64,000 bases of DNA from Patescibacteria group bacterium UBA5147 (GTDB lineage: Bacteria; Patescibacteriota; Saccharimonadia; UBA4664). The stretch covers positions 33,059 to 97,058 of the forward strand of contig DHXV01000001.1 of the NCBI GenBank assembly GCA_002415345.1, written 5' to 3'. How positions within the stretch are numbered: position 1 is the stretch's first letter; each line of letters begins with the position of its first letter. Under the pieces are notes generated by a model, which made no database searches, had not been told where the DNA came from, and was given only the letters and a program-made list of their open reading frames with translations. This document shows positions 5,281 through 52,224 of this stretch, piece by piece. The translations under genes were made by a program, and so were the position numbers.

Positions 5281-5544
5281 ATGATAATGACCATTATTAC
5301 GTGGATCATCCTTGGTGCGCTGGCCGGCTGGATCGCCTCGATGATTACAGGAACCAACGCTCGTGTTAGCGGATACATGAACGTCGTCGTAGGTATAATC
5401 GGAGCCTTCATCGGCGGCTTGGTCTTGCAGCTGCTCGGCGCGTCACAGCCGGCAGGATTCAACCTGCCAAGTCTGCTGACTGCGGTATTGGGAGCCGTTA
5501 TCCTGTTGGCTCTCGTCCGGGCCTTCCGTCGCGACACGATTTAG
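5281..5544 (+). CDS. GlsB/YeaQ/YmgE-family small membrane protein
   Basis: 87 aa with two TM helices, GALAGWIAS...GIIGAFIGG motif, and an AAGGAG RBS. Confidence 0.65.
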   Translation: MIMTIITWIILGALAGWIASMITGTNARVSGYMNVVVGIIGAFIGGLVLQLLGASQPAGFNLPSLLTAVLGAVILLALVRAFRRDTI

Positions 5545-5567
5545 CAGTTACGCAACCCACCCCACCT

Positions 5568-5596
5568 AAAAAGGCCCGCATCATGCGGGCCTTTTT
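5568..5596. terminator. bidirectional intrinsic terminator
   Basis: aaaaa-GGCCCGCA-tca-TGCGGGCC-ttttt hairpin between convergent genes. Confidence 0.6.
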
Positions 5597-5613
5597 AGTA
5601 CGAACTACGGGTG

Positions 5614-5868
5614 TTAACCGACCAGTTTGAGTTGATCGGCCAGCCAATCCTGGTCAAAGCCGACGACGCCGGCTACAGTTCCGTCAGCGTGGGTAATGGT
5701 AGTAAACGGAACACCCATCTGACCGGATAGTTTAACCATCTCGGCTGCGGCGGCTTCGTCTTCCTCGACATTTACGTCGATATATGGCACTTTATGCTCA
5801 TCCAAGAAGTTCTTCTCAGCCTTACAGTATGCGCACCAACTTGTTGAATAAATTTTTACGGTTGCCAT
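5614..5868 (-). CDS. glutaredoxin-like protein (NrdH/Grx family)
   Basis: 84 aa, YSTSWCAYCK CxxC thioredoxin-fold motif. Confidence 0.75.
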   Translation of the reverse strand: MATVKIYSTSWCAYCKAEKNFLDEHKVPYIDVNVEEDEAAAAEMVKLSGQMGVPFTTITHADGTVAGVVGFDQDWLADQLKLVG

Positions 5869-5918
5869 GGATGTTTCTCCTTACTTCTACTATACCAAAT
5901 GAGGCAAGCCCAGAGTGA

Positions 5919-6569
5919 TTACGGACGTATTGGATCCGAAACTGCATTCGTTGGCGGTGAAGGTTCGGGCGAAACCGTCGGGGTGGGATCAGGCTGAGCA
6001 ATCTGCGAGGCCGGAGTTACCGGGGATTCCGGTACCCGCGTAACTAGAGGCAGGGCATTTATCAATGAGCCGACCCCGTCGTCTGCTTGATAAGGTTTCT
6101 TTGAACTCGCCTCCGCGTCCTCCGGCTTGTTGTGGCGCTTCGATTGGGAGGTTGTTGCGATATGAGTCGCGATGGCGGTTTTCTTCCCCTTTTCGACGCT
6201 CGGAGTATGAAGCACCATTGGGTGAGCTGAAGGTTCCGCCAGGCTGCGGGCAACCTCTTCATGTCCACCAGATGACGGTTGGACATTTGCCGGCCTACCG
6301 ATAAACTCAGCAATAGCTTTTTCTCCGGCAACCGCAGATAGCCCAAGTACTCCAGCTCCAAGCAACACCAGCAGGATCATGCGCGCCTTAGGCATGTGAG
6401 TATCCATGAAATTGGTCCGCAACCGATATGCGGCCATAATTTTATCAATATCAACCGATAGGGCGTACTTGGCTAGTTCGGCCATACGCACTCGTCGTTT
6501 ACGACCATTTTTGTATTGCAACAGGATGGTGGAATCAGTCTCTAAACTGAAATTGGCTAATTCTTGCAT
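5919..6569 (-). CDS. membrane-anchored protein with Pro/Thr-rich extracellular tail, function unknown
   Basis: 216-aa ORF with a cytoplasmic N-domain, one TM helix and a low-complexity P/T/S tail. Confidence 0.45.
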   Translation of the reverse strand: MQELANFSLETDSTILLQYKNGRKRRVRMAELAKYALSVDIDKIMAAYRLRTNFMDTHMPKARMILLVLLGAGVLGLSAVAGEKAIAEFIGRPANVQPSSGGHEEVARSLAEPSAHPMVLHTPSVEKGKKTAIATHIATTSQSKRHNKPEDAEASSKKPYQADDGVGSLINALPLVTRVPESPVTPASQIAQPDPTPTVSPEPSPPTNAVSDPIRP

Positions 6570-6835: not shown

Positions 6836-8173
6836 TTAAGGCTGACAGGTCGATACCGGACGCTCGCCGCCGGTGACTTGCTTCAACCAGGCGAGGGTGT
6901 CGTTCAAGCTTAATATCATGGTGTTGTAATGGGTCCCGTCATAGAGCTTCAACTGAACCGGTCCCGTGCTGGCATGACACATCCCCGGTATCGCCGACTC
7001 GGACTGGCGTGCGAGAACAACATTATCGTTGCGCCCCTGGTTAATCAGTTTGGCGCTGGAGGTAGCCTCGTTGCCGACCGAGTTCTTATCCAAATCCCTG
7101 GCCAGCTCCGGATAATCACTGGCAAAGGTGTCGGTGTTAATGGATGCCAGGAACTGGGGCGTGTAGACCGCGTTCGGATTATGTCCCCAGAACGCAATAT
7201 CCGAATCGATACAATGAGACAACACGTCTCCGGTCAGATTTTGATGGAAACGCGGTTGTAATATCCGTTCCAGCCCGTAGTCGGCTTTATAGTAATCGTG
7301 ATAACTGGTGAGAACGTAGGGTCCAATCCAATTCAGGGTCGAGCCGAATGCCACGTCCCCGATGGATTCCTTGACGCTCGTGACCGGCCCGAATCCAACG
7401 ACACCCTTTACCGTAACGTCCGGTGCGTAGGCCTCCGCGATCGTATCGGCCCAGAAGGCGGCGTGGCCGCCCTGCGAATACCCTCCCACCACCACTTGAC
7501 CCTCTTTGAGGTGGCCTTTGGTGTCAGGGAGGTATTTGATTGCCCGGATGGCATCAAGCAGCGCCCGGCCTTCCAGCTCGCCGTTGAGGTAATGATGGAT
7601 GCGACCGGGATCCCGCATACCCTCATAATCGGTAGTCACCGCCACGTAGCCTTGGCTTGCATACATCAGCATGTGGGAATCGTAGTTGCCCCAGTTGGCA
7701 ACTTTCGGATTCTCAAGCGACGGCGCACATTGGTCGCCGATGCCCGTGGTACCGGGACCAAAGGCAAATACTGGATACGACCTAGCACCAGTCGGAACGT
7801 ATGCCCGCCCGTACACCGTAAACAAAGTGCCGTCTAAATCGGATGAACGGTAGCGGAAGGTTATTTTTGTAACCCCGGACTTGGCGGGCAGAGTCGCGGC
7901 CCCGTAATTCTCGTGTGCCACTTCCTGAGTCTGCGTCAGGGAAAAGGTCTGCCTGGCATCAACGCCGAGCAACTGACCCGGAGCGGGTTTGATCGGAATC
8001 GGCGAAGAAATAACCGCAGGCACCGTACGGCCCCGCCGGACGTCATCCTGATGGATGAAGAAATACAGGAACGCACTGGTCACCAGCGCCAAGACAATAA
8101 AAGCTCCAACCGCTCCCCGATGGCTTCGCTGAGATTTGTCGTGGCGGTATGGTTTAAAAAACGGCTGGATCAC
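6836..8173 (-). CDS. secreted/membrane-anchored alpha/beta-hydrolase (lipase/esterase-like)
   Basis: 445 aa, N-terminal TM, GGYSQGG (GxSxG) nucleophile elbow. Confidence 0.65.
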   Translation of the reverse strand: MIQPFFKPYRHDKSQRSHRGAVGAFIVLALVTSAFLYFFIHQDDVRRGRTVPAVISSPIPIKPAPGQLLGVDARQTFSLTQTQEVAHENYGAATLPAKSGVTKITFRYRSSDLDGTLFTVYGRAYVPTGARSYPVFAFGPGTTGIGDQCAPSLENPKVANWGNYDSHMLMYASQGYVAVTTDYEGMRDPGRIHHYLNGELEGRALLDAIRAIKYLPDTKGHLKEGQVVVGGYSQGGHAAFWADTIAEAYAPDVTVKGVVGFGPVTSVKESIGDVAFGSTLNWIGPYVLTSYHDYYKADYGLERILQPRFHQNLTGDVLSHCIDSDIAFWGHNPNAVYTPQFLASINTDTFASDYPELARDLDKNSVGNEATSSAKLINQGRNDNVVLARQSESAIPGMCHASTGPVQLKLYDGTHYNTMILSLNDTLAWLKQVTGGERPVSTCQP

Positions 8174-8174
8174 G

Positions 8175-8660
8175 TTAAACCTGGCCCGTCTTAAAGGTCA
8201 TGATGTCCATCCGGACCCCATCTACAGGGTAGGCATCACACCACACAAAACCCTGGCGCTCGTAGTATCTCCGGTGATCATGGGTCGCCAGTGACACCTC
8301 GGTGGCCCCCAACTGACTTTGCATCCGCAGCATTCGACTGAGCAGAGTGAGGCCGGTGTTACGACCGCGGCGGCTTGGATCAACGAACAGCCAAAAAAGC
8401 TGGCCTTTGCCGTTCTTCGGCACACTGCCAATGGCGTACCCCACCAGTTCGCCGCCGTGATGTGCCGTCAAAATGATTCGCCGCGGATGAATAGCCGCCA
8501 GCAGCAGCTTGAGCGGCCGATGATTACGAATCACCTGATCCTGCTCAATCGCGGGGAAATAGGCGAAATGAGACCGCACGGCCGACACGAACATCCGGTG
8601 GAGAGCCGGAATATCACGCAGTTTAATGGGAATGATGATGGTTTTGTCCACGGGCACCAA
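8175..8660 (-). CDS. GNAT-family N-acetyltransferase
   Basis: 161 aa, acetyl-CoA-binding-like motif (..RRGRNTGLTLL..). Confidence 0.65.
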   Translation of the reverse strand: MVPVDKTIIIPIKLRDIPALHRMFVSAVRSHFAYFPAIEQDQVIRNHRPLKLLLAAIHPRRIILTAHHGGELVGYAIGSVPKNGKGQLFWLFVDPSRRGRNTGLTLLSRMLRMQSQLGATEVSLATHDHRRYYERQGFVWCDAYPVDGVRMDIMTFKTGQV

Positions 8661-8683
8661 GCGTTACCGAAATATCATATCAG

Positions 8684-9310
8684 TTAAGACCGCTTGAGGC
8701 GACCGGCGAAGACCTCCCGCAGATGCTTTAGTTTGGGATTTATAACCGCTTGGCAGTAGGCGCGCTCCGGGTGGGTACGGAAATAATTCTGATGGTACGG
8801 CTCGGCTTCATAAAAGGCGTCGAGCCGCTCAATTTCAGTAACCACCTCGGCGTCCCACAGTTGGGCTACTGCGTTACGGCTAGCCAGAGCCGCCTCCTTC
8901 TGGGATTCATTTTCGTACAGGATGATCGAACGGTACTCCGAGCCGACATCGTAGCCTTGCCGATTCCTCGTCGTCGGATTATGGATTGCCCAGAAGATGT
9001 CCAGGATATCGGCGTAACTGATGACGCGGGGATCGAAATGCACTTGAACGACTTCGGCATGACCTGTACTGCCGCCCAATACCTCCTTATAGCTGGGGTT
9101 CGGCACCTTCCCCCCGGCATAGCCGGAGACGACATGGTCCACTCCGGCAATTTCCTGATACGCCGCCTCCAAACACCAGAAGCAGCCGCCTCCGATGGTT
9201 GCAACCTGTAATGCCGTGTCAGCCATCGCTGTCCCCTTTGTGGATATTTTAGGAGCCGCTTGGGGAGCACACAAGGATAAGCGTTGCTTAGAGCTCTTCC
9301 TGCTTGTCAC
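8684..9310 (-). CDS. msrA: peptide-methionine (S)-S-oxide reductase
   Basis: GGGCFWCLEA active-site motif. Confidence 0.9.
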   Translation of the reverse strand: MTSRKSSKQRLSLCAPQAAPKISTKGTAMADTALQVATIGGGCFWCLEAAYQEIAGVDHVVSGYAGGKVPNPSYKEVLGGSTGHAEVVQVHFDPRVISYADILDIFWAIHNPTTRNRQGYDVGSEYRSIILYENESQKEAALASRNAVAQLWDAEVVTEIERLDAFYEAEPYHQNYFRTHPERAYCQAVINPKLKHLREVFAGRLKRS

Positions 9311-10859
9311 GCATGAAACCGACCCACTGCTGCACCAGCCTGAGCGACGTCTTAAGCGGAAATTCTATCGCCACGTCCAGCAGCCTCGTCACGATATTCG
9401 CCTTGGCATAGCGGTCAGACAGCCAATGCCCCACCCGCACAAACGGCGTCGACAGAAAATCGGCCAGCACCTGAATCAGGTTTTGCCGTTCCGGCAGCAT
9501 GCGCAGCTCGCCGGCGGCCTGGCGCAATCTCAACCCCAAGAAACTGACGGCCGAGAAGAACATAAAGAAGATAAATCCGTTCACCGGGTTGAACCCAAGG
9601 TAGCGAAGCAACCAAATGAGCAAGCCAAAGGACAACGTAAAGCCCAGCCCGTAAATACTCAGGAAGACCGTATTCAACGAGGGAGAAGTTACGCGGCGAC
9701 GTAGTTTATAGGAGATGGGAGGCTGATCGGAAGCGTAGATTATCCGGTCGACATATGAAGCGATAACTTCCGTATTCTGTCGCCCCGGAGCTCTGGCTTG
9801 TAGCCCGATAAGCATCATATACAAGGGAGGAAAGACAATATTGATGATGAGTGGCTGCCAGAGAATAAATCGGGATATGAACAGATCATATGGAACCTCA
9901 ATGCTGATTCCAATCAATATTTTGGTAAGGAAGATGAACATGATGGTTCGTATCAGCCTATCAGAAGCATTTTTTTCGACGAGCTGGTACTGCTGTTGAC
10001 AGATTGACCGCACTTTTCCCAGGGTTGTTTCTCGGGACAGCAATGTTCCGGAAGTGACAGTACTTGAAACCAGGAGTTCGCGCATAATGCGGATTGGAGC
10101 GGCGTACCGGTTTACGACCCGGCCTAGGCGGTTCGTCAGCGGAGACTGATATTGGACGTCGATAAGCTGGTTGGCGGCGATGAAGTCGCGCACCGGGAAA
10201 GCGTCAAGATCCTCAAGGTTGGCAGCCAGCGCATAAAACCTGGTGGTCGCCAGATCCGATTTGAAAATTGTCCGGTGAATTGCGCAGTATAAGGCAGTCT
10301 GATCGCGCTCGGGCTTACCGGCGCCTTCAACACTGGAAAAATCAATGGCTTTCAAATAATGATCGTACGCGAAGGAGATGAACGGGCTCAACCGTCGGCT
10401 CGTCGGCACGAGCGTATTTTCAAGCTGGACCGAGAGCAACTGCGTAATCCAACGCTTAAGTACCTTGGGCTGTTCCCCGCCGGTCTGACGGGCGGCATTA
10501 AAATAATTGCCATACTTGGCGCCGGTGTCGTCCATTGCGGCTAGCATCGTGATTGGCACGCTGTGGTTGGGGACGTAGCCCGCCTGAGTAAGCTCGTTAA
10601 TCAGTTCTGCAGCCGAAGTGCGGTAATTGCCAATGTCCACGTGCCGCGTCAGGAACCGCTCAATAGCCCCGCGCAGCAGCAGATGACGTTCACGGTATTC
10701 AGCCGCGTTTCGCAGCTGCTCATAGGCAAAATAAAAGTTACCTCCGACACCGTCGACATGGTAAACCGGACCCGCAGCGGGAGCTATGGCCTCTCCGGCG
10801 GACAATTGGTTTATAAGGTGACGGACGGCAGGAGTCAATTCAGTGGATGAAGAATGCAT
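9288..10859 (-). CDS. large membrane protein, function unknown
   Basis: 523-aa ORF with a soluble N-terminal half and a polytopic C-terminal half. No recognised motif. Confidence 0.5.
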   Translation of the reverse strand: MHSSSTELTPAVRHLINQLSAGEAIAPAAGPVYHVDGVGGNFYFAYEQLRNAAEYRERHLLLRGAIERFLTRHVDIGNYRTSAAELINELTQAGYVPNHSVPITMLAAMDDTGAKYGNYFNAARQTGGEQPKVLKRWITQLLSVQLENTLVPTSRRLSPFISFAYDHYLKAIDFSSVEGAGKPERDQTALYCAIHRTIFKSDLATTRFYALAANLEDLDAFPVRDFIAANQLIDVQYQSPLTNRLGRVVNRYAAPIRIMRELLVSSTVTSGTLLSRETTLGKVRSICQQQYQLVEKNASDRLIRTIMFIFLTKILIGISIEVPYDLFISRFILWQPLIINIVFPPLYMMLIGLQARAPGRQNTEVIASYVDRIIYASDQPPISYKLRRRVTSPSLNTVFLSIYGLGFTLSFGLLIWLLRYLGFNPVNGFIFFMFFSAVSFLGLRLRQAAGELRMLPERQNLIQVLADFLSTPFVRVGHWLSDRYAKANIVTRLLDVAIEFPLKTSLRLVQQWVGFMRDKQEEL

Positions 10860-33044: not shown

Positions 33045-33488
33045 TTACAGACCGATCTGGAGGTTGGTGTTTTTAACGACAGACGCGTAGTCGTAGCCCG
33101 GTTTGGTCTGGGCAAAAATTACGCCGATTTCGTCGATGCGGTCGAGCAGTTCCTTGGCATGTTCGAGTGAGCCCGAATGTTTGGCCTCGCCCGCGGCTTT
33201 GGTAGCTCGCCAGAACAGGTCGTGCAGGGTGGGGAATTTCTCCACATGTTCCGGCTTGAAGTAATCGGTCCACAACACCCACAGGTGGTGTTTTACTAGT
33301 TCGGCGCGCTCTTCTTTAATGACCAGTGAACGAGTCTTGAACTCCTGGTCGTCGGAGTCCAGGTATTTCTTGGTAATGGCGTAAACGCTGGCGGCTTCGA
33401 TGCGGGCCTGGGCCGGGTCGTAGACGCCACAGGGCAGGTCGCAGTGGGCATAGACGGTTTTGGCAGGGATGAGTTGGGTTAGTTTCAC
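33045..33488 (-). CDS. sodN: nickel-containing superoxide dismutase precursor
   Basis: A 14-aa propeptide then HCDLPCGVYDPAQARIEA.., the Ni-hook motif His-Cys-x-x-Pro-Cys-Gly-x-Tyr. The rest also matches Streptomyces SodN along its length (..KHHLWVLWTDYFKP..). Confidence 0.9.
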   Translation of the reverse strand: MKLTQLIPAKTVYAHCDLPCGVYDPAQARIEAASVYAITKKYLDSDDQEFKTRSLVIKEERAELVKHHLWVLWTDYFKPEHVEKFPTLHDLFWRATKAAGEAKHSGSLEHAKELLDRIDEIGVIFAQTKPGYDYASVVKNTNLQIGL

Positions 33489-48124: not shown

Positions 48125-48198
48125 GGGTCAATAATAACACTTCAGGATTTGATAATATTACCTACCGGCTCTGCTTCGTTTAACTTTCAAATCAAGAA

Positions 48199-48242
48199 GA
48201 AACACCCGAGCTTGGGGTTCAGGTGTTTCTATTGGTGGAGCA
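48199..48242. repeat. degenerate copy of the tRNA-Ala 3' end plus its terminator hairpin
   Basis: gaaacacccgagcttggggttcaggtgtttctattggtggagca is about 86% identical to 48921-48964, including the tRNA 3' end TGGTGGAGCA. Confidence 0.55.
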
Positions 48243-48346
48243 TTGTGTGTGCTGTTAGCACTGCAGCAGAGGGTGCGGCGAGTCTTGCGTGAGCAAGATT
48301 AAAGCGCCCCACTGGATGTGAGGCGCTGGTCGAACTACTAGCCGAA

Positions 48347-48910
48347 CTAGTCGTGGACATGGCCTTTCGAATCACGATAGCGCCAGAATTTAGCACCATC
48401 CTCGCGAGCGACTTCGAAGCGATCGAACCGTCGTTCTCTCAGGCAAGGCCACTGCCAACAACGTTTGAAAATACGCTCTTGCGGGTTACCCCAGCCGATG
48501 CCCGGAAAGTGGTGCATTTCATCTTTGTGGCCGATAGGTAACTCACACATGATCTGTGAGTCGCGGGTGTAGAGGTCTTTACAGGACCCCACCACCTCCG
48601 CGTGGAATAGGAGAGCTTGGTGTTCGAATAGGTCAGCCAGAACGATGTCTTCGCTGGCCCGCCGAGAAATCTCTGCGCCAAGGACACCGAGCTGCTCGGA
48701 TGAGGCTCGAAGTGAGCGTGCCTCCTTGAAGCAAGCTTTAGCCTTCACTGAGGGAGGTTGGGCTGACATTTTAGCAAGGATGGTATCCAAAGCTGCATGA
48801 TTCATTAGTGCCCCTAGAGCTCGTGAACAAAAAGTGTGAGAAAGAACTAAACATTTTGTAACATAAGTACCTAAATGAGTCCAGCTATCCGAACAGGTGA
48901 CGTGGGACAC
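48347..48910 (-). CDS. hypothetical protein enclosed by the tRNA-3'-end direct repeats
   Basis: The 187-aa ORF starts at GTG, but its upstream end abuts the tRNA terminator. ATG 48805 (MNHAAL..) is the more likely start. No recognisable motifs. Confidence 0.4.
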   Translation of the reverse strand: MSHVTCSDSWTHLGTYVTKCLVLSHTFCSRALGALMNHAALDTILAKMSAQPPSVKAKACFKEARSLRASSEQLGVLGAEISRRASEDIVLADLFEHQALLFHAEVVGSCKDLYTRDSQIMCELPIGHKDEMHHFPGIGWGNPQERIFKRCWQWPCLRERRFDRFEVAREDGAKFWRYRDSKGHVHD

Positions 48911-48920
48911 TAATCAAATA

Positions 48921-48951
48921 GAAACACCCGAGGTTGGGGCTCGGGTGTTTC
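48921..48951 (-). terminator. terminator hairpin of tRNA-Ala(GGC)
   Basis: gaaacacccgag-gttgggg-ctcgggtgtttc, a 12-bp stem directly 3' of the tRNA. Confidence 0.6.
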
Positions 48952-48954
48952 TTA

Positions 48955-49030
<76 letters not shown>

Positions 49031-49300: not shown

Positions 49301-49831
49301 CTATGCATGGTCGAGATCACTTCGCGTCAATACGGCATGGAGTGCAATGCCCACGGCAGCCAAGGCTTCTGCCCCGCCCTCCTCGCGATCAATGGCGCAA
49401 ATGACGTCCGTGACCATACCGCCAAGGCCACGAATTGCAGCCGCCGCATTAATGACCGCTCCGCCACTCGTAACGACGTCCTCTATCAACACGATGCACT
49501 GACCCGTTGGGTCGCCGCCCTCAGCCTGCTTTCGTGTTCCGTATTCTTTGGCCGCCTTGCGGACGAACAGCACTGGCAATCGGGTTGCCTGTCCTACCAA
49601 AGTCGCCAGTGGGACGCCACCGAGCTCGAGCCCGCCGAGCATTTGGGCGTTTGCCGGAACCAGCCCAACCATGCGGCCGGCAACCTCTTTTAACAGTTTG
49701 GGATCAGACTCAAAAAGGTATTTGTCGAAGTACTCACTAGCGGTCCTGCCTGAGCGAAGCGTGAAACTTCCGGTCAAACGACTGCGTGAATTTATGGATT
49801 TGGCCAATAAATCAGGTGTTTTATCTTCCAT
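49301..49831 (-). CDS. pyrE: orotate phosphoribosyltransferase
   Basis: PRPP-binding motif VLIEDVVTSGG. Confidence 0.9.
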   Translation of the reverse strand: MEDKTPDLLAKSINSRSRLTGSFTLRSGRTASEYFDKYLFESDPKLLKEVAGRMVGLVPANAQMLGGLELGGVPLATLVGQATRLPVLFVRKAAKEYGTRKQAEGGDPTGQCIVLIEDVVTSGGAVINAAAAIRGLGGMVTDVICAIDREEGGAEALAAVGIALHAVLTRSDLDHA

Positions 49832-49928: not shown

Positions 49929-50417
49929 CTAGACAGATGCGGGTTCAAATGACACCCAGTCCATGGCCGTAATCCCGTCCTTACCCACATATACCTCTTG
50001 GGGCCAGTCGCTGGACGTCGCCGGGATAGTCCTGGTCTCAAAACTGAAGTCTGCGACGGCCTTACGAAGCCACTTCGGACTCATGGCAGCGTTGCTCGCA
50101 GCGATGAGGGTATCTTGCTGCAGCGGCGGAATAATTGAGGCCGTGCCGCATTGATCACAGTGTCGTTGAAGGGCAAGGCGGTATTTAACGCTAAAATTGA
50201 ACCAGTTCGTAGCTTGATCCCCCTTTATCCGGAAGTCATCGGGTCCGACTGGTTTGCCATCGCGAACAGTTCGCGGGGTGATCCTTCGAGCATAAAAGTC
50301 CTCACACACTGTTTCGCAGACTCGGCACCCCAACTGTAGAATCAACGCAAGCCCGGGCTGGTCGTCGTAATTACTCGAGTTGCCGTGGAGCGCGATACGC
50401 CACTGTCGTACATACAT
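49929..50417 (-). CDS. Cys-rich hypothetical protein (CxxC...CxxC)
   Basis: 162-aa ORF containing CRVCETVC and CDQCG motifs. Located downstream of the TIR-like gene. Confidence 0.45.
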   Translation of the reverse strand: MYVRQWRIALHGNSSNYDDQPGLALILQLGCRVCETVCEDFYARRITPRTVRDGKPVGPDDFRIKGDQATNWFNFSVKYRLALQRHCDQCGTASIIPPLQQDTLIAASNAAMSPKWLRKAVADFSFETRTIPATSSDWPQEVYVGKDGITAMDWVSFEPASV

Positions 50418-50606
50418 TTGTACTCCTTGTTGTCGAGGTGCGATGCCGTTATTTTGACATATTCAGATTCAGTTGCAAACAATATGGCGACCAGATTGCA
50501 ATCGGGTCGCCATTTTGGTGGTCCTGATGGGACGATACTACAACCATGATTCGCTCCAAGAGCGGTTTATCAAGCTGCAGGAGGAGTGTAGCTGTATTCC
50601 GGCGGA

Positions 50607-51713
50607 CTAAGACTTGAAGCTAGCGAACGCCTCTAATAGCGCCATTGTCGATTCGTGGTCGAGGCCAGAGCCCTCATACCTAACTTCATACAACCCTTGA
50701 AGGTTTGACGGAAGCGTCACACCACGCTCTACTAGTAGGATAAAACGTCGACCGTACAATGCCATCGCAGCACCTATCTCAATCAATACATTCGGGTTCA
50801 ACACCTGCTGCTCATTGCCGTCTGAATCGATTAGAGTTTTTTCAGCCCCAACATGAACTATTCCGGCGGAACAGGAACGCATATCATCCATCACTTTGTC
50901 CGGTACTGGCTTGGCATTGGTTTGCTTCTCTACCGAAACGACAGCCTCAAAATCACCGAAAATCAAAAGTTTCTTAATCTGAGCGACAATCTGTTGGTCT
51001 TTTCCGTGCGTTATGAAGACCCGACGATTCTCATTCTCAATCAGGGGAGGAAGCGCTGGCGTTATTGGGGGTTCGTCGTTTGAGTCAACCATAGAACCAT
51101 CTGGATTGGAGCTATCACCGTGATCCTGCGAGGTGCCTACCGGACCTGGAAATAACGAAGTTGGCAATAAGACCGCATCAGTGGTAGCGGCGGCCGACAG
51201 CTCAACAAAATCGGTGCCATTAATGTTTGTGATGAATCCCAAGTCGGAGGCATCCTTATATATAAGTTCGAGGGCTCGCCCCGTCTGCTCTTCTGGAACG
51301 CCCAAGGTAGAAAGAACGTTTCGGCCGATATCTTCCCGTGGCCACTTCGAGCCTTTGTACTTCATCAAGAACTCACGGGTAATTCGCGGACGCATGATCG
51401 CTTCTCTCATTGCCGCTAAATCATCACCTTCCGAAGTAGGAGCAACTATTCGGAGTCCCAATTCGGTAAGGCCTATTTTTTCAGCAAAAGCACCAGCGTC
51501 CGTCATGCCATACGCCATCGCCGATGTCGTTATAGTGCGAAACGGTCCAGTGGTTGGCTTCATGTTCATCGCCGCAGCAACCTGAAGCGGCGTGGACGGA
51601 TGCTTTCCAAGCTCGCTCACAATTGCCTGGGGGACACGTAGCGATTCTTTTAGACTATAAGAAGGCACATCTGTCTGTGGCAATGCAGCCTTTCTTAACT
51701 TTTTTTCACTCAT
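50607..51713 (-). CDS. protein with C-terminal COG4271/PF10137-type TIR-like nucleotide-binding domain
   Basis: The C-terminal ~130 aa reads RVFITHGKDQQIV...NPNVLIEIGAAMALYGRRFILLVERGVTLPSNLQGLYEVRY, matching the vFivHG...NV.fElGy..g...ll...v..PSdl.G COG4271 pattern. The N-terminal ~190 aa has an unknown fold. A Pro-rich linker joins them. Confidence 0.6.
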   Translation of the reverse strand: MSEKKLRKAALPQTDVPSYSLKESLRVPQAIVSELGKHPSTPLQVAAAMNMKPTTGPFRTITTSAMAYGMTDAGAFAEKIGLTELGLRIVAPTSEGDDLAAMREAIMRPRITREFLMKYKGSKWPREDIGRNVLSTLGVPEEQTGRALELIYKDASDLGFITNINGTDFVELSAAATTDAVLLPTSLFPGPVGTSQDHGDSSNPDGSMVDSNDEPPITPALPPLIENENRRVFITHGKDQQIVAQIKKLLIFGDFEAVVSVEKQTNAKPVPDKVMDDMRSCSAGIVHVGAEKTLIDSDGNEQQVLNPNVLIEIGAAMALYGRRFILLVERGVTLPSNLQGLYEVRYEGSGLDHESTMALLEAFASFKS

Positions 51714-52115
51714 TGCGGTCTCTTCGGTTATCTAAAGTTAGTATAATTACACGCATGGATATGTGTCAAGATTGTGTGTAATAGGAACAGGCTGACTTTC
51801 TATCTGGATAATTAGTCCGAAGCGGGCACATATAGAAACATAAAAGTGTGGCTTAACCTTGCCGGATTCGGAAAACTGTCGCAATCTAAAGAAAAACAAA
51901 ATTAAAAACGCCAGCACTTAATGGGTTTCTTCGCGCATGACAGTCATAACTTGAGAATGGTAGAAAACTACATTTTCAGGCGAATTTAGACGTGAAGCGC
52001 CCCCGGCATCAAATAATGAATACTTGATGCCAAGGACTATTTTGCAAGCATGGGAAGTTCAAAGATAGCCACTCAACACTTCTGAAATATCCGAAGGTCT
52101 CTTGTTTAAGACAAC

Positions 52116-52136
52116 AAAAAGGGCTCCTCTGAGCCC
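52116..52136 (-). terminator. terminator of tRNA-Ala(CGC)
   Basis: GGGCTC-ctct-GAGCCC hairpin followed, on the minus strand, by UUUUUG. Confidence 0.55.
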
Positions 52137-52148
52137 ATAATTGCAAAT

Positions 52149-52224
52149 TGGTGGAGATAGAGGGATTCAAACCCTCGGCCTCTGCAATGCGAATGCAGCG
52201 CTCTATCAGCTGAGCTATATCCCC
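52149..52224 (-). tRNA. tRNA-Ala (anticodon CGC)
   Basis: GGGGATATAGCTCAGCTGATAGAGCGCTGCATTCGCATTGCAGAGGCCGAGGGTTTGAATCCCTCTATCTCCACCA, with G3:U70. Confidence 0.8.

Follow-up and report, generated by a model that had tools for sequence, protein, structure and literature searches.

A 64,000-nucleotide stretch of the genome of Patescibacteria group bacterium UBA5147 (contig DHXV01000001.1, forward-strand positions 33,059 to 97,058; hereafter the window, with positions counted from its first letter) carries, directly behind its tRNA-Ala(CGC) gene, a horizontally acquired insert whose only gene encodes a 368-residue protein. This protein joins an N-terminal domain that matches no described family to a C-terminal TIR domain through a disordered linker, and we propose that it is probably a one-protein abortive-infection system, in which a sensor domain controls a TIR whose breakdown of nicotinamide adenine dinucleotide (NAD+) is most likely what kills the infected cell. 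The effector type is already known; what we rate as new is a TIR immune receptor that consists of one protein and whose sensor domain has not been described, an architecture absent from the searchable literature on PDC-S35, COG4271 or Saccharibacteria defence. An earlier note, made from the letters of the window alone, had pointed to the gene and to a Cys-rich neighbour of 162 residues. Our open reading frame (ORF) calls recovered both genes where it had placed them, 189 bp apart on the same strand, and ARAGORN and Rfam located the two tRNA-Ala genes, with anticodons GGC and CGC, that it had reported.

The C-terminal domain is a TIR of the Cap12/PycTIR type, as the earlier note had proposed in assigning it to COG4271/PF10137. 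The Pfam family CAP12-PCTIR_TIR (PF10137) matches residues 231–347 over profile positions 1–118 of 119 (E 2.4e-19), scoring 69.9 bits against a gathering cutoff of 24.7, and a profile search of PDB sequences returned PycTIR (8jsj, E 1.5e-6) as the best match, together with SfSTING (7un8). In an AlphaFold2 model of the full protein, built on a 44-sequence alignment, residues 228–368 reach a predicted local distance difference test score (pLDDT) of about 90, and take the flavodoxin-like TIR fold; the best Foldseek matches of this part are the TIR-STING filaments 7un8 and 9lmq (E 4e-5). The best PADLOC matches (PDC-S35, generic TIR effector models and PycTIR) cover the TIR part only.

Active-site residues of SfSTING reported in PMC9402430 were mapped onto the protein through the profile alignment, allowing for an 8-residue chain offset. 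The catalytic residue E84 of SfSTING (PMC9402430; chain index 92) aligns with E312, the glutamate expected on helix alpha-C, which is invariant in the 44 homologues, and the pocket residues F6, R78 and N80 align with F233, N306 and N308, each of them invariant. SfSTING D110, which completes the active site of the dimer mate (PMC9402430), corresponds to N337; this position is an invariant Asn here, whereas PycTIR and 9lmq have Asp. With E312 kept and the D110 and R78 positions changed, the enzyme core is intact, though not identical to that of SfSTING.

The N-terminal domain (residues 10–172 approximately) is modelled with a pLDDT of about 97 in the full protein and of 90.9, with a predicted template modelling score of 0.83, when modelled alone. 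The earlier note had recognised no motif in this region, and annotation stays empty in broader searches: Pfam (even at E up to 10), NCBIfam, PHROGs and PADLOC gave no match, and an N-domain profile run against PDB sequences gave nothing below E 0.4. The linker that follows has an isoelectric point (pI) of 4.05 and contains neither Lys nor Arg, and its length and sequence vary across the family. The N-domain itself is common, its profile retrieving 2,416 cluster representatives (50% identity) at E≤0.001 and 250 at E≤1e-30. Among the best 150 of these matches, 68 carry the same type of TIR, four carry a Ser/Thr kinase and most of the others are fragments.

PD-T4-6, the kinase that these four fusions resemble, has been validated experimentally as a defence system. 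The N-domains of the fusions (P0167, P0183, P0215 and P0268) are 35–44% identical to that of the window protein, while their kinase halves match almost the entire PADLOC model of PD-T4-6, listed there as a single-gene defence, with E values down to 2e-54 and scores up to 183 bits; the generic Pkinase family scores 123 bits. On these sequence comparisons the N-domain behaves as a swappable sensor module, and the fact that it is paired with two effectors of defence type, unrelated to each other, is the best indirect argument that it would be the input module of an immune protein. It is quite possible, and we offer this tentatively, that the N-domain is an undescribed and very widespread infection sensor that directly recognises a conserved phage component and can be wired to either a Cap12-type TIR or a PD-T4-6-type kinase. 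Two Curtobacterium proteins (P0287 and P0185) show a further arrangement, in which the N-domain and linker lead into a short conserved C-terminal motif (…G[VI][HN]INIEIHIAADA…IEDIF..MRRYVLK…), with no TIR or kinase.

Comparison with three relatives (L001–L003) delimits the DNA that brought the gene to this site. Pairwise homology spans tRNA-Ala(CGC), breaks exactly at its CCA end (52149) and picks up again at about 50521. The empty site of L002 runs from the tRNA CCA end straight into AAAGGGCGACC, then through a hairpin and GTTTGCAA to the start codon of the 162-aa gene; in both L002 and L003 the tRNA is followed directly by the hairpin and that gene, and the window holds 1,627 bp more at this point. 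Because the hairpin at 50486..50511 directly follows the tRNA in the empty site, it is resident DNA. The insert itself opens with a 12-nt junction, ATTTGCAATTAT, followed by a second hairpin, GGGCTCAGAGGAGCCC, which lies 12 nt after the tRNA and past the junction, by a leader of 40% GC, by a predicted promoter ending about 27 nt upstream of the ATG, by the TIR gene and by an 85-bp tail. At the right end of this tail stands CCACCA, a copy of the tRNA 3' end that may be an att-like direct repeat but, at only 6 bp, is suggestive only.

Composition sets the insert apart as well, with a GC content of 47.1% against a window mean of 54.2%, which places it in the lowest 1.3% of 1.6-kb windows. GC at third codon positions (GC3) is 0.49 in the TIR gene and 0.58–0.76 in neighbouring genes. 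The insert holds no integrase or recombinase, the TIR gene being its sole gene, and an Rfam scan of the leader and of the whole window returned tRNAs only, with no family on the leader. The unit is a horizontally acquired insert of 1.63 kb at the tRNA-Ala(CGC) 3' end, with the TIR gene as its single gene. The earlier note had drawn an islet reaching from one tRNA-Ala to the other; this does not hold, as the foreign DNA extends only 1.63 kb beside tRNA-Ala(CGC). Its description of the stretch before the gene as strongly AT-rich stands in substance, for 435 bp at 40.2% GC is AT-rich relative to the window (54.3%), though "strongly" is slightly generous.

The same position is occupied differently in L001, where the slot after tRNA-Ala(CGC) (5466–5990) begins with the same 12-nt junction, ATTTGCAATTAT, and holds a different gene (5506–5922), for a 138-aa protein, in the place of the resident hairpin. 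Different cargo behind an identical junction marks the site as a small cargo hot spot. The 138-aa product has no match in Pfam or PHROGs; a guess from a motif that it was TIR-like or nucleoside 2-deoxyribosyltransferase-like was dropped, as hhalign against the TIR profile gave a probability of 0.2% and those searches were empty. A metagenome scan with the conserved right-flank motif, made for further variants of the hot spot, returned five matches that lack Obg, tRNA and 162-aa gene alike and are due to chance.

Beyond this genome the family is large and unevenly spread. The identical 368-aa protein occurs on 15 metagenome or genome contigs, up to 570 kb long. Full-length homologues, with identities of 45–73%, are numerous: of the 8,000 candidates scored, 4,810 match at E≤0.001, the best 120 listed being about 50–75% identical and nearly all covering almost the whole protein. 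In GTDB data with one genome per species, 443 stretches encode a relative, corresponding to at least 443 species. The best 80 of these are full length and 45–56% identical, and come from Actinomycetota, Chloroflexota, Pseudomonadota, Acidobacteriota, Planctomycetota, Verrucomicrobiota, Bacteroidota, Chlorobium, Patescibacteria/Saccharibacteria and one archaeal metagenome-assembled genome; a homologue annotated as TM7 (P0214) is only 49% identical. The gene has a lower GC content than its flanks in 73 of 74 loci (L012–L090), by 7.5 points on average, and the 300 bp upstream of it lie 8.1 points below the flanks on average; this pattern is independent of host GC, from 37% to 71%.

ORF clustering across 83 loci found no conserved neighbour within ±6 kb of the family gene, the commonest clusters being an ABC-ATPase-like fragment (10/83 loci) and a tyrosine integrase (9/83), and the flanking ORFs of homologues contained no second N-domain or TIR. 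A tRNA lies within about 1.5 kb of the gene in 8–9 of 60 loci. Among the nearest 150 flanking ORFs are six integrases, a TrwC relaxase, DndB (twice), MkoA (twice), mad6 (twice), PDC-S06 (three times) and AbiLi (three times), so that the family context is not purely housekeeping, a point that the earlier note had proposed to check by neighbourhood analysis. Many short family members in complete genomes are produced by frameshifts within the TIR, whose frequency fits a costly, toxic gene. Taken over the loci compared, the distribution of the family is patchy and mobile.

Two further observations concern individual members. Six proteins from complete genomes or long contigs (P0332, P0305, P0318, P0339, P0344 and P0316) appear to consist of the N-domain only, and many such cases are TIR genes frameshifted shortly past the VFI(T/S)HGK motif. 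In three Microbacteriaceae loci (L013, L015 and L017, from Pseudolysinimonas, Leifsonia and Leifsonella) the homologue lies 0.36–1.2 kb from a tRNA-Gly(TCC)/tRNA-Pro(TGG) pair, which suggests that they share a site linked to these tRNAs or else inherited the gene vertically.

Another reading takes the gene for a selfish one (a toxin or an addiction gene) in a mobile element that has decayed, or for a weapon used between bacteria or between epibiont and host, in place of anti-phage immunity. The insert looks like the remnant of a larger island, for it adjoins a tRNA 3' end, has a short repeat and lacks an integrase; transposases, integrases and a relaxase are found among the neighbours across loci, and the best-identified relatives are in Actinomycetota. 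However, no small antitoxin-like neighbour is conserved across loci, the protein has no secretion signal, no secretion system appears among the commonest neighbour families, and the sequence of sensor, linker and effector matches the build of known immune proteins. We think a selfish or weapon role improbable and return to abortive infection as the preferred reading.

How such a protein would act is modelled on characterised TIR effectors. The PycTIR and TIR-STING NADases are switched on by sensor-driven oligomerisation: in both, ligand binding to a non-TIR domain leads to a filament or oligomer in which the TIR active site assembles, with NAD+ depletion and abortive infection as the outcome (PMC11224242; PMC9402430). 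SpbK is a single-gene TIR NADase activated by direct binding of a phage portal protein. By analogy with the TIRs of Cap12, PycTIR and TIR-STING, the window protein is probably inactive at rest. Its N-domain would meet an infection cue, most likely a phage protein or nucleic acid and not a cyclase-made nucleotide, and trigger binding would make the protein oligomerise. The flexible linker would let the TIR domains pack together, the packed TIRs would hydrolyse NAD+, and the loss of NAD+ would stop the infected cell before phage release.

Several observations weigh against an abortive-infection role, the first of them concerning the sensor. Foldseek of the N-domain against PDB and BFVD gave no significant match (best E 0.047). 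The weak matches that it did give are all winged-helix assemblies, namely SelB WH2-4, DtxR/IdeR, GntR, O-methyltransferase dimerisation domains and the FokI recognition domain (probabilities 0.96–0.97), and the helix order with two beta-hairpins fits two winged-helix-like units, so that secondary-structure order and these consistent weak matches hint at a winged-helix-like sensor; an acidic pI of 5.5 lends no support to simple binding of DNA. In the effector, the Asn at N337 in place of D110 means that chemistry or substrate could differ. The searchable literature contains no experiment on the family, and only three relatives occur in 2.9 million viral contigs. Plain housekeeping enzymes are also found among the nearest flanking ORFs, with many homologues adjoining housekeeping genes. 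Lastly, the nearest 150 ORFs match 107 PADLOC models against 18, mostly weakly matched, for 116 ORFs at least 7.5 kb away, but this contrast is crude, resting on naive ORF calls and on models counted instead of genes, with ATPase and kinase models that cross-match SMC proteins and kinases of housekeeping type.

Comparison with nucleotide-signalling systems bears on a different account, in which the protein is an orphan effector of CBASS-, Pycsar- or Pucsar-like signalling, its N-domain binding a second messenger from a cyclase encoded at another genomic location, upon which its TIR would deplete NAD+. Characterised Cap12/PycTIR-type TIRs are all messenger-activated, and a cyclic GMP-dependent PucTIR system has recently been reported. 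PycTIR (8jsj), the best PDB sequence match, likewise has an N-terminal sensor before a C-terminal PF10137 TIR and shares with the window protein the NV..E.G catalytic motif and the L.V....LPS..GL motif. Its sensor, however, is a cyclic-nucleotide-binding domain (CNBD) dependent on the PycC cyclase next door, whereas the window protein has an unrelated, putatively winged-helix-like sensor and no cyclase. The PADLOC PycTIR model matches weakly (E 6e-5) and in the TIR only, and we found no match to a cyclic-nucleotide-binding family even at E up to 10 and no cyclase neighbour, which places the protein outside Pycsar.

Cap12/TIR-STING (7un8, 9lmq) offers the best structural match of the C-terminal domain and the E84–E312 alignment, but there the TIR is N-terminal with STING after it, and the system depends on c-di-GMP and a CD-NTase operon. 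The window protein has its TIR at the C-terminus, no STING domain, no CD-NTase and an Asn at the D110 position. Against the NCBIfam Cap12 equivalog NF050172 it scores 11.4 bits where the cutoff is 450, and no CD-NTase is present in the window or conserved across the 83 loci, so that it does not belong to CBASS as defined. An orphan effector is hard to reconcile with these results: no cyclase or CD-NTase is conserved in the 83 loci and none lies in the 64-kb window, the N-domain matches no CNBD, SAVED or STING domain and its weak fold matches are winged-helix proteins, and the same N-domain is also paired with kinases of the PD-T4-6 type, systems that stand alone. We give this account only a slim chance beside the one-protein system.

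Direct recognition has closer parallels in logic. SpbK of ICEBs1 and the single-protein systems TIR-II, V, VI and IX of E. coli are each one mobile-element-borne protein in which N-terminal phage recognition is joined to a C-terminal TIR NADase, with abortive infection as the result. These proteins come from Bacillus and E. coli and are likened to the window protein by logic; the papers on SpbK and the E. coli TIR systems do not mention its family. The features shared with this group are a stand-alone gene and a non-TIR domain that acts like an interchangeable sensor (found with TIR, kinase or short C-terminal motif). PDC-S35, a single-gene candidate with the same TIR type, is the best PADLOC match (E 2.9e-10, 38 bits), but the match covers only profile positions 116–238 of 264, the TIR, and the first ~115 positions are unlike the N-domain. 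Full-length membership does not apply, and the searchable literature holds no paper on PDC-S35. PD-T4-6 differs in its effector, a kinase joined to N-domain homologues where the window protein has a TIR. Membership of Thoeris likewise finds no basis, for there is no conserved neighbour, and no ThsA or SLOG effector occurs among the top PADLOC and Pfam families of the 150 flanking ORFs.

The changed active site also admits a TIR fold that is not an abortive-infection NADase but acts on another substrate, for example as an N-glycosidase of nucleotides or nucleosides, like MilB or the nucleoside 2-deoxyribosyltransferase relatives, or makes a signal like ThsB, in a metabolic, regulatory or signal-producing role. 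The equivalents of D110 and R78 are both Asn, so that the site is unlike that of SfSTING, and TIR-like folds include a hydroxymethyl-CMP (hmCMP) glycosylhydrolase (PMC9402430). The winged-helix domain would then have a regulatory part or direct the protein to nucleic acids. Many loci lie in housekeeping contexts. A patchy cross-phylum spread at high identity, low GC, integrase, tRNA and defence neighbours, and frameshifts are nevertheless unexpected for a metabolic enzyme; no ThsA-like effector is adjacent, and the occurrence of the N-domain together with a kinase of defence type speaks for a role in conflict. We regard a different substrate or product as unlikely, though it deserves some weight against NAD+ depletion.

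The earlier note had left open whether the gene acts alone or with the Cys-rich neighbour. As a partner, the latter would be a sensor, antitoxin or regulator. The stand-alone option agrees with the lack of a conserved neighbour at the 83 loci; the two-gene option fails. In its favour, the genes are adjacent on one strand at 189 bp, and the CxxC...CxxC motif that the note had seen holds up: none of its cysteines (C31, C34, C87 and C90) varies among the five family sequences, which would fit a Zn-ribbon. However, the 162-aa protein, which matches no family in Pfam, PADLOC or NCBIfam, has four homologues (52–64% identity) among 5.8 billion clusters, against thousands for the TIR family, and none of their loci (L001, L002/L003, L095 and L097) has a TIR gene. 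L001 and L002/L003 keep the order RuvX–YceG–LysM/CHAP–Obg–tRNA-Ala(CGC)–162aa, with a phosphoribosyltransferase (PRTase) gene next in L002/L003; the homologues in L095 and L097 stand in other gene contexts. L002 also has tRNA-Ala(GGC) past the PRTase, and since it lacks a TIR gene, the arrangement of two tRNAs, 162-aa gene and PRTase is ancestral and not an islet boundary. The insertion boundary falls between the two genes, and GC3 is 0.61 in the 162-aa gene against 0.49 in the TIR gene. Synteny without a TIR gene and incompatible family sizes rule out the partner idea; on this comparison the 162-aa gene is a lineage-specific resident gene, and a two-gene module, effectively refuted, has next to no chance of being right.

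Table 1. Features in and around the tRNA-Ala(CGC) insert, in window coordinates
Feature	Position	Strand	Basis or remark
tRNA-Ala(CGC)	52149..52224	-	ARAGORN; Rfam tRNA 68.4 bits; left boundary of the insertion set by its 3' CCA end
Horizontally acquired insert, 1,627 bp	50522..52148	-	Leader, promoter, TIR gene and 85-bp tail
Terminator-like hairpin GGGCTCAGAGGAGCCC, then T-run	52121..52136	-	Consensus scan and sequence reading; putative function
Low-GC non-coding leader, 435 bp	51714..52148	-	40.2% GC
Sigma-70-like promoter TTGACA-18-TATACT	51740..51769	-	11/12 consensus matches; predicted, consensus match only
Sensor-TIR gene, 368 aa	50607..51713	-	ORF call
N-terminal domain, residues 10–175 (about)	51189..51686	-	Two winged-helix-like units (predicted); presumed trigger sensor
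Acidic Pro/Ser-rich disordered linker, residues 176–228 (about)	51030..51188	-	pLDDT below 50
C-terminal Cap12/PycTIR-type TIR domain, residues 229–368 (about)	50610..51029	-	PF10137, PDB profile matches, Foldseek
Codon of E312, predicted catalytic Glu, NVLIEIG motif	50778..50780	-	Invariant; aligned to SfSTING E84
Codon of N337, LPSNLQG motif	50703..50705	-	Invariant Asn at the SfSTING D110 position
CCACCA, second copy of tRNA 3' end, right junction	50516..50521	-	Comparison with L002 empty site
Hairpin GGCGACC-CGATTGCAATCT-GGTCGCC	50486..50511	-	Directly follows the tRNA in the empty site
162-aa CxxC...CxxC (Zn-ribbon-like) gene	49929..50417	-	Adjacent resident gene, outside the module
Phosphoribosyltransferase (PRTase) gene	49301-49831		Between the two tRNA-Ala genes
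tRNA-Ala(GGC)	48955-49030	-	Second tRNA-Ala of the window

Apart from these features the window holds core metabolism and translation genes only. A survey of its 64 non-overlapping ORFs confirmed the earlier statement that no cyclase or specific defence partner is present, and it also bears on how PADLOC matches are to be read. One window ORF matches Pfam SMC_N (E 1e-65), and single window ORFs give strong PADLOC matches to mad3 (1.8e-63), LmuB, AriA and GajA; we infer that these are one and the same housekeeping ATPase of the SMC family, in which case such matches are not specific to defence. Matches of neighbours of the family to mad3, AriA, GajA and LmuB were discounted as defence evidence, since the window's housekeeping SMC protein gives the same ones. 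Pfam NUDIX and the PADLOC candidate PDC-S07 (E 3.7e-15) are each matched by two window ORFs, probably the same two proteins in both cases.

A separate small islet lies at tRNA-Ala(GGC). A 54-nt direct repeat (87% identity) occurs at 48190–48243 and 48912–48965, the second copy including the tRNA-Ala(GGC) 3' end, and the repeats bracket a 668-bp segment (48244–48911) with an ORF of 187 aa (48347–48910) that has no match in Pfam, PADLOC or NCBIfam. This segment, just outside the interval of the earlier note, is a better-delimited att-flanked islet than the TIR insert. In L002 three further copies of the 54-nt element lie downstream of tRNA-Ala(GGC) (8151–8204, 8682–8736 and 10104–10150), setting apart genes for proteins of 165 and 105 aa, an acetyltransferase and a Peptidase_S51, which suggests an array of mini-islets at this tRNA.

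The latest systematic survey of TIR proteins set aside stand-alone TIRs as presumed NAD+-depleting effectors (10.64898/2025.12.03.692087), and their sensors are in consequence largely unexplored. In the family described here, an effector that is well understood is joined to a sensor whose fold is predicted with confidence yet carries no annotation, which offers a clean system for asking what that sensor recognises and how one sensor activates two unrelated effectors. Experiments are feasible, since the family is compact (about 370 aa, one gene), common and represented in cultured Microbacteriaceae, Solirubrobacter, Halopseudomonas, Duganella and Chlorobium. As to the genome itself, the finding would mean that a small, streamlined chromosome region gained just one gene for immunity at a tRNA hot spot. 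If the N-domain is indeed an infection sensor, the family would be a new one of one-protein immune receptors extending from Actinomycetota to Patescibacteria and archaea, and the altered active site of its TIR, where Asn replaces the Asp that acts in trans, might yield another product or be activated in another geometry.

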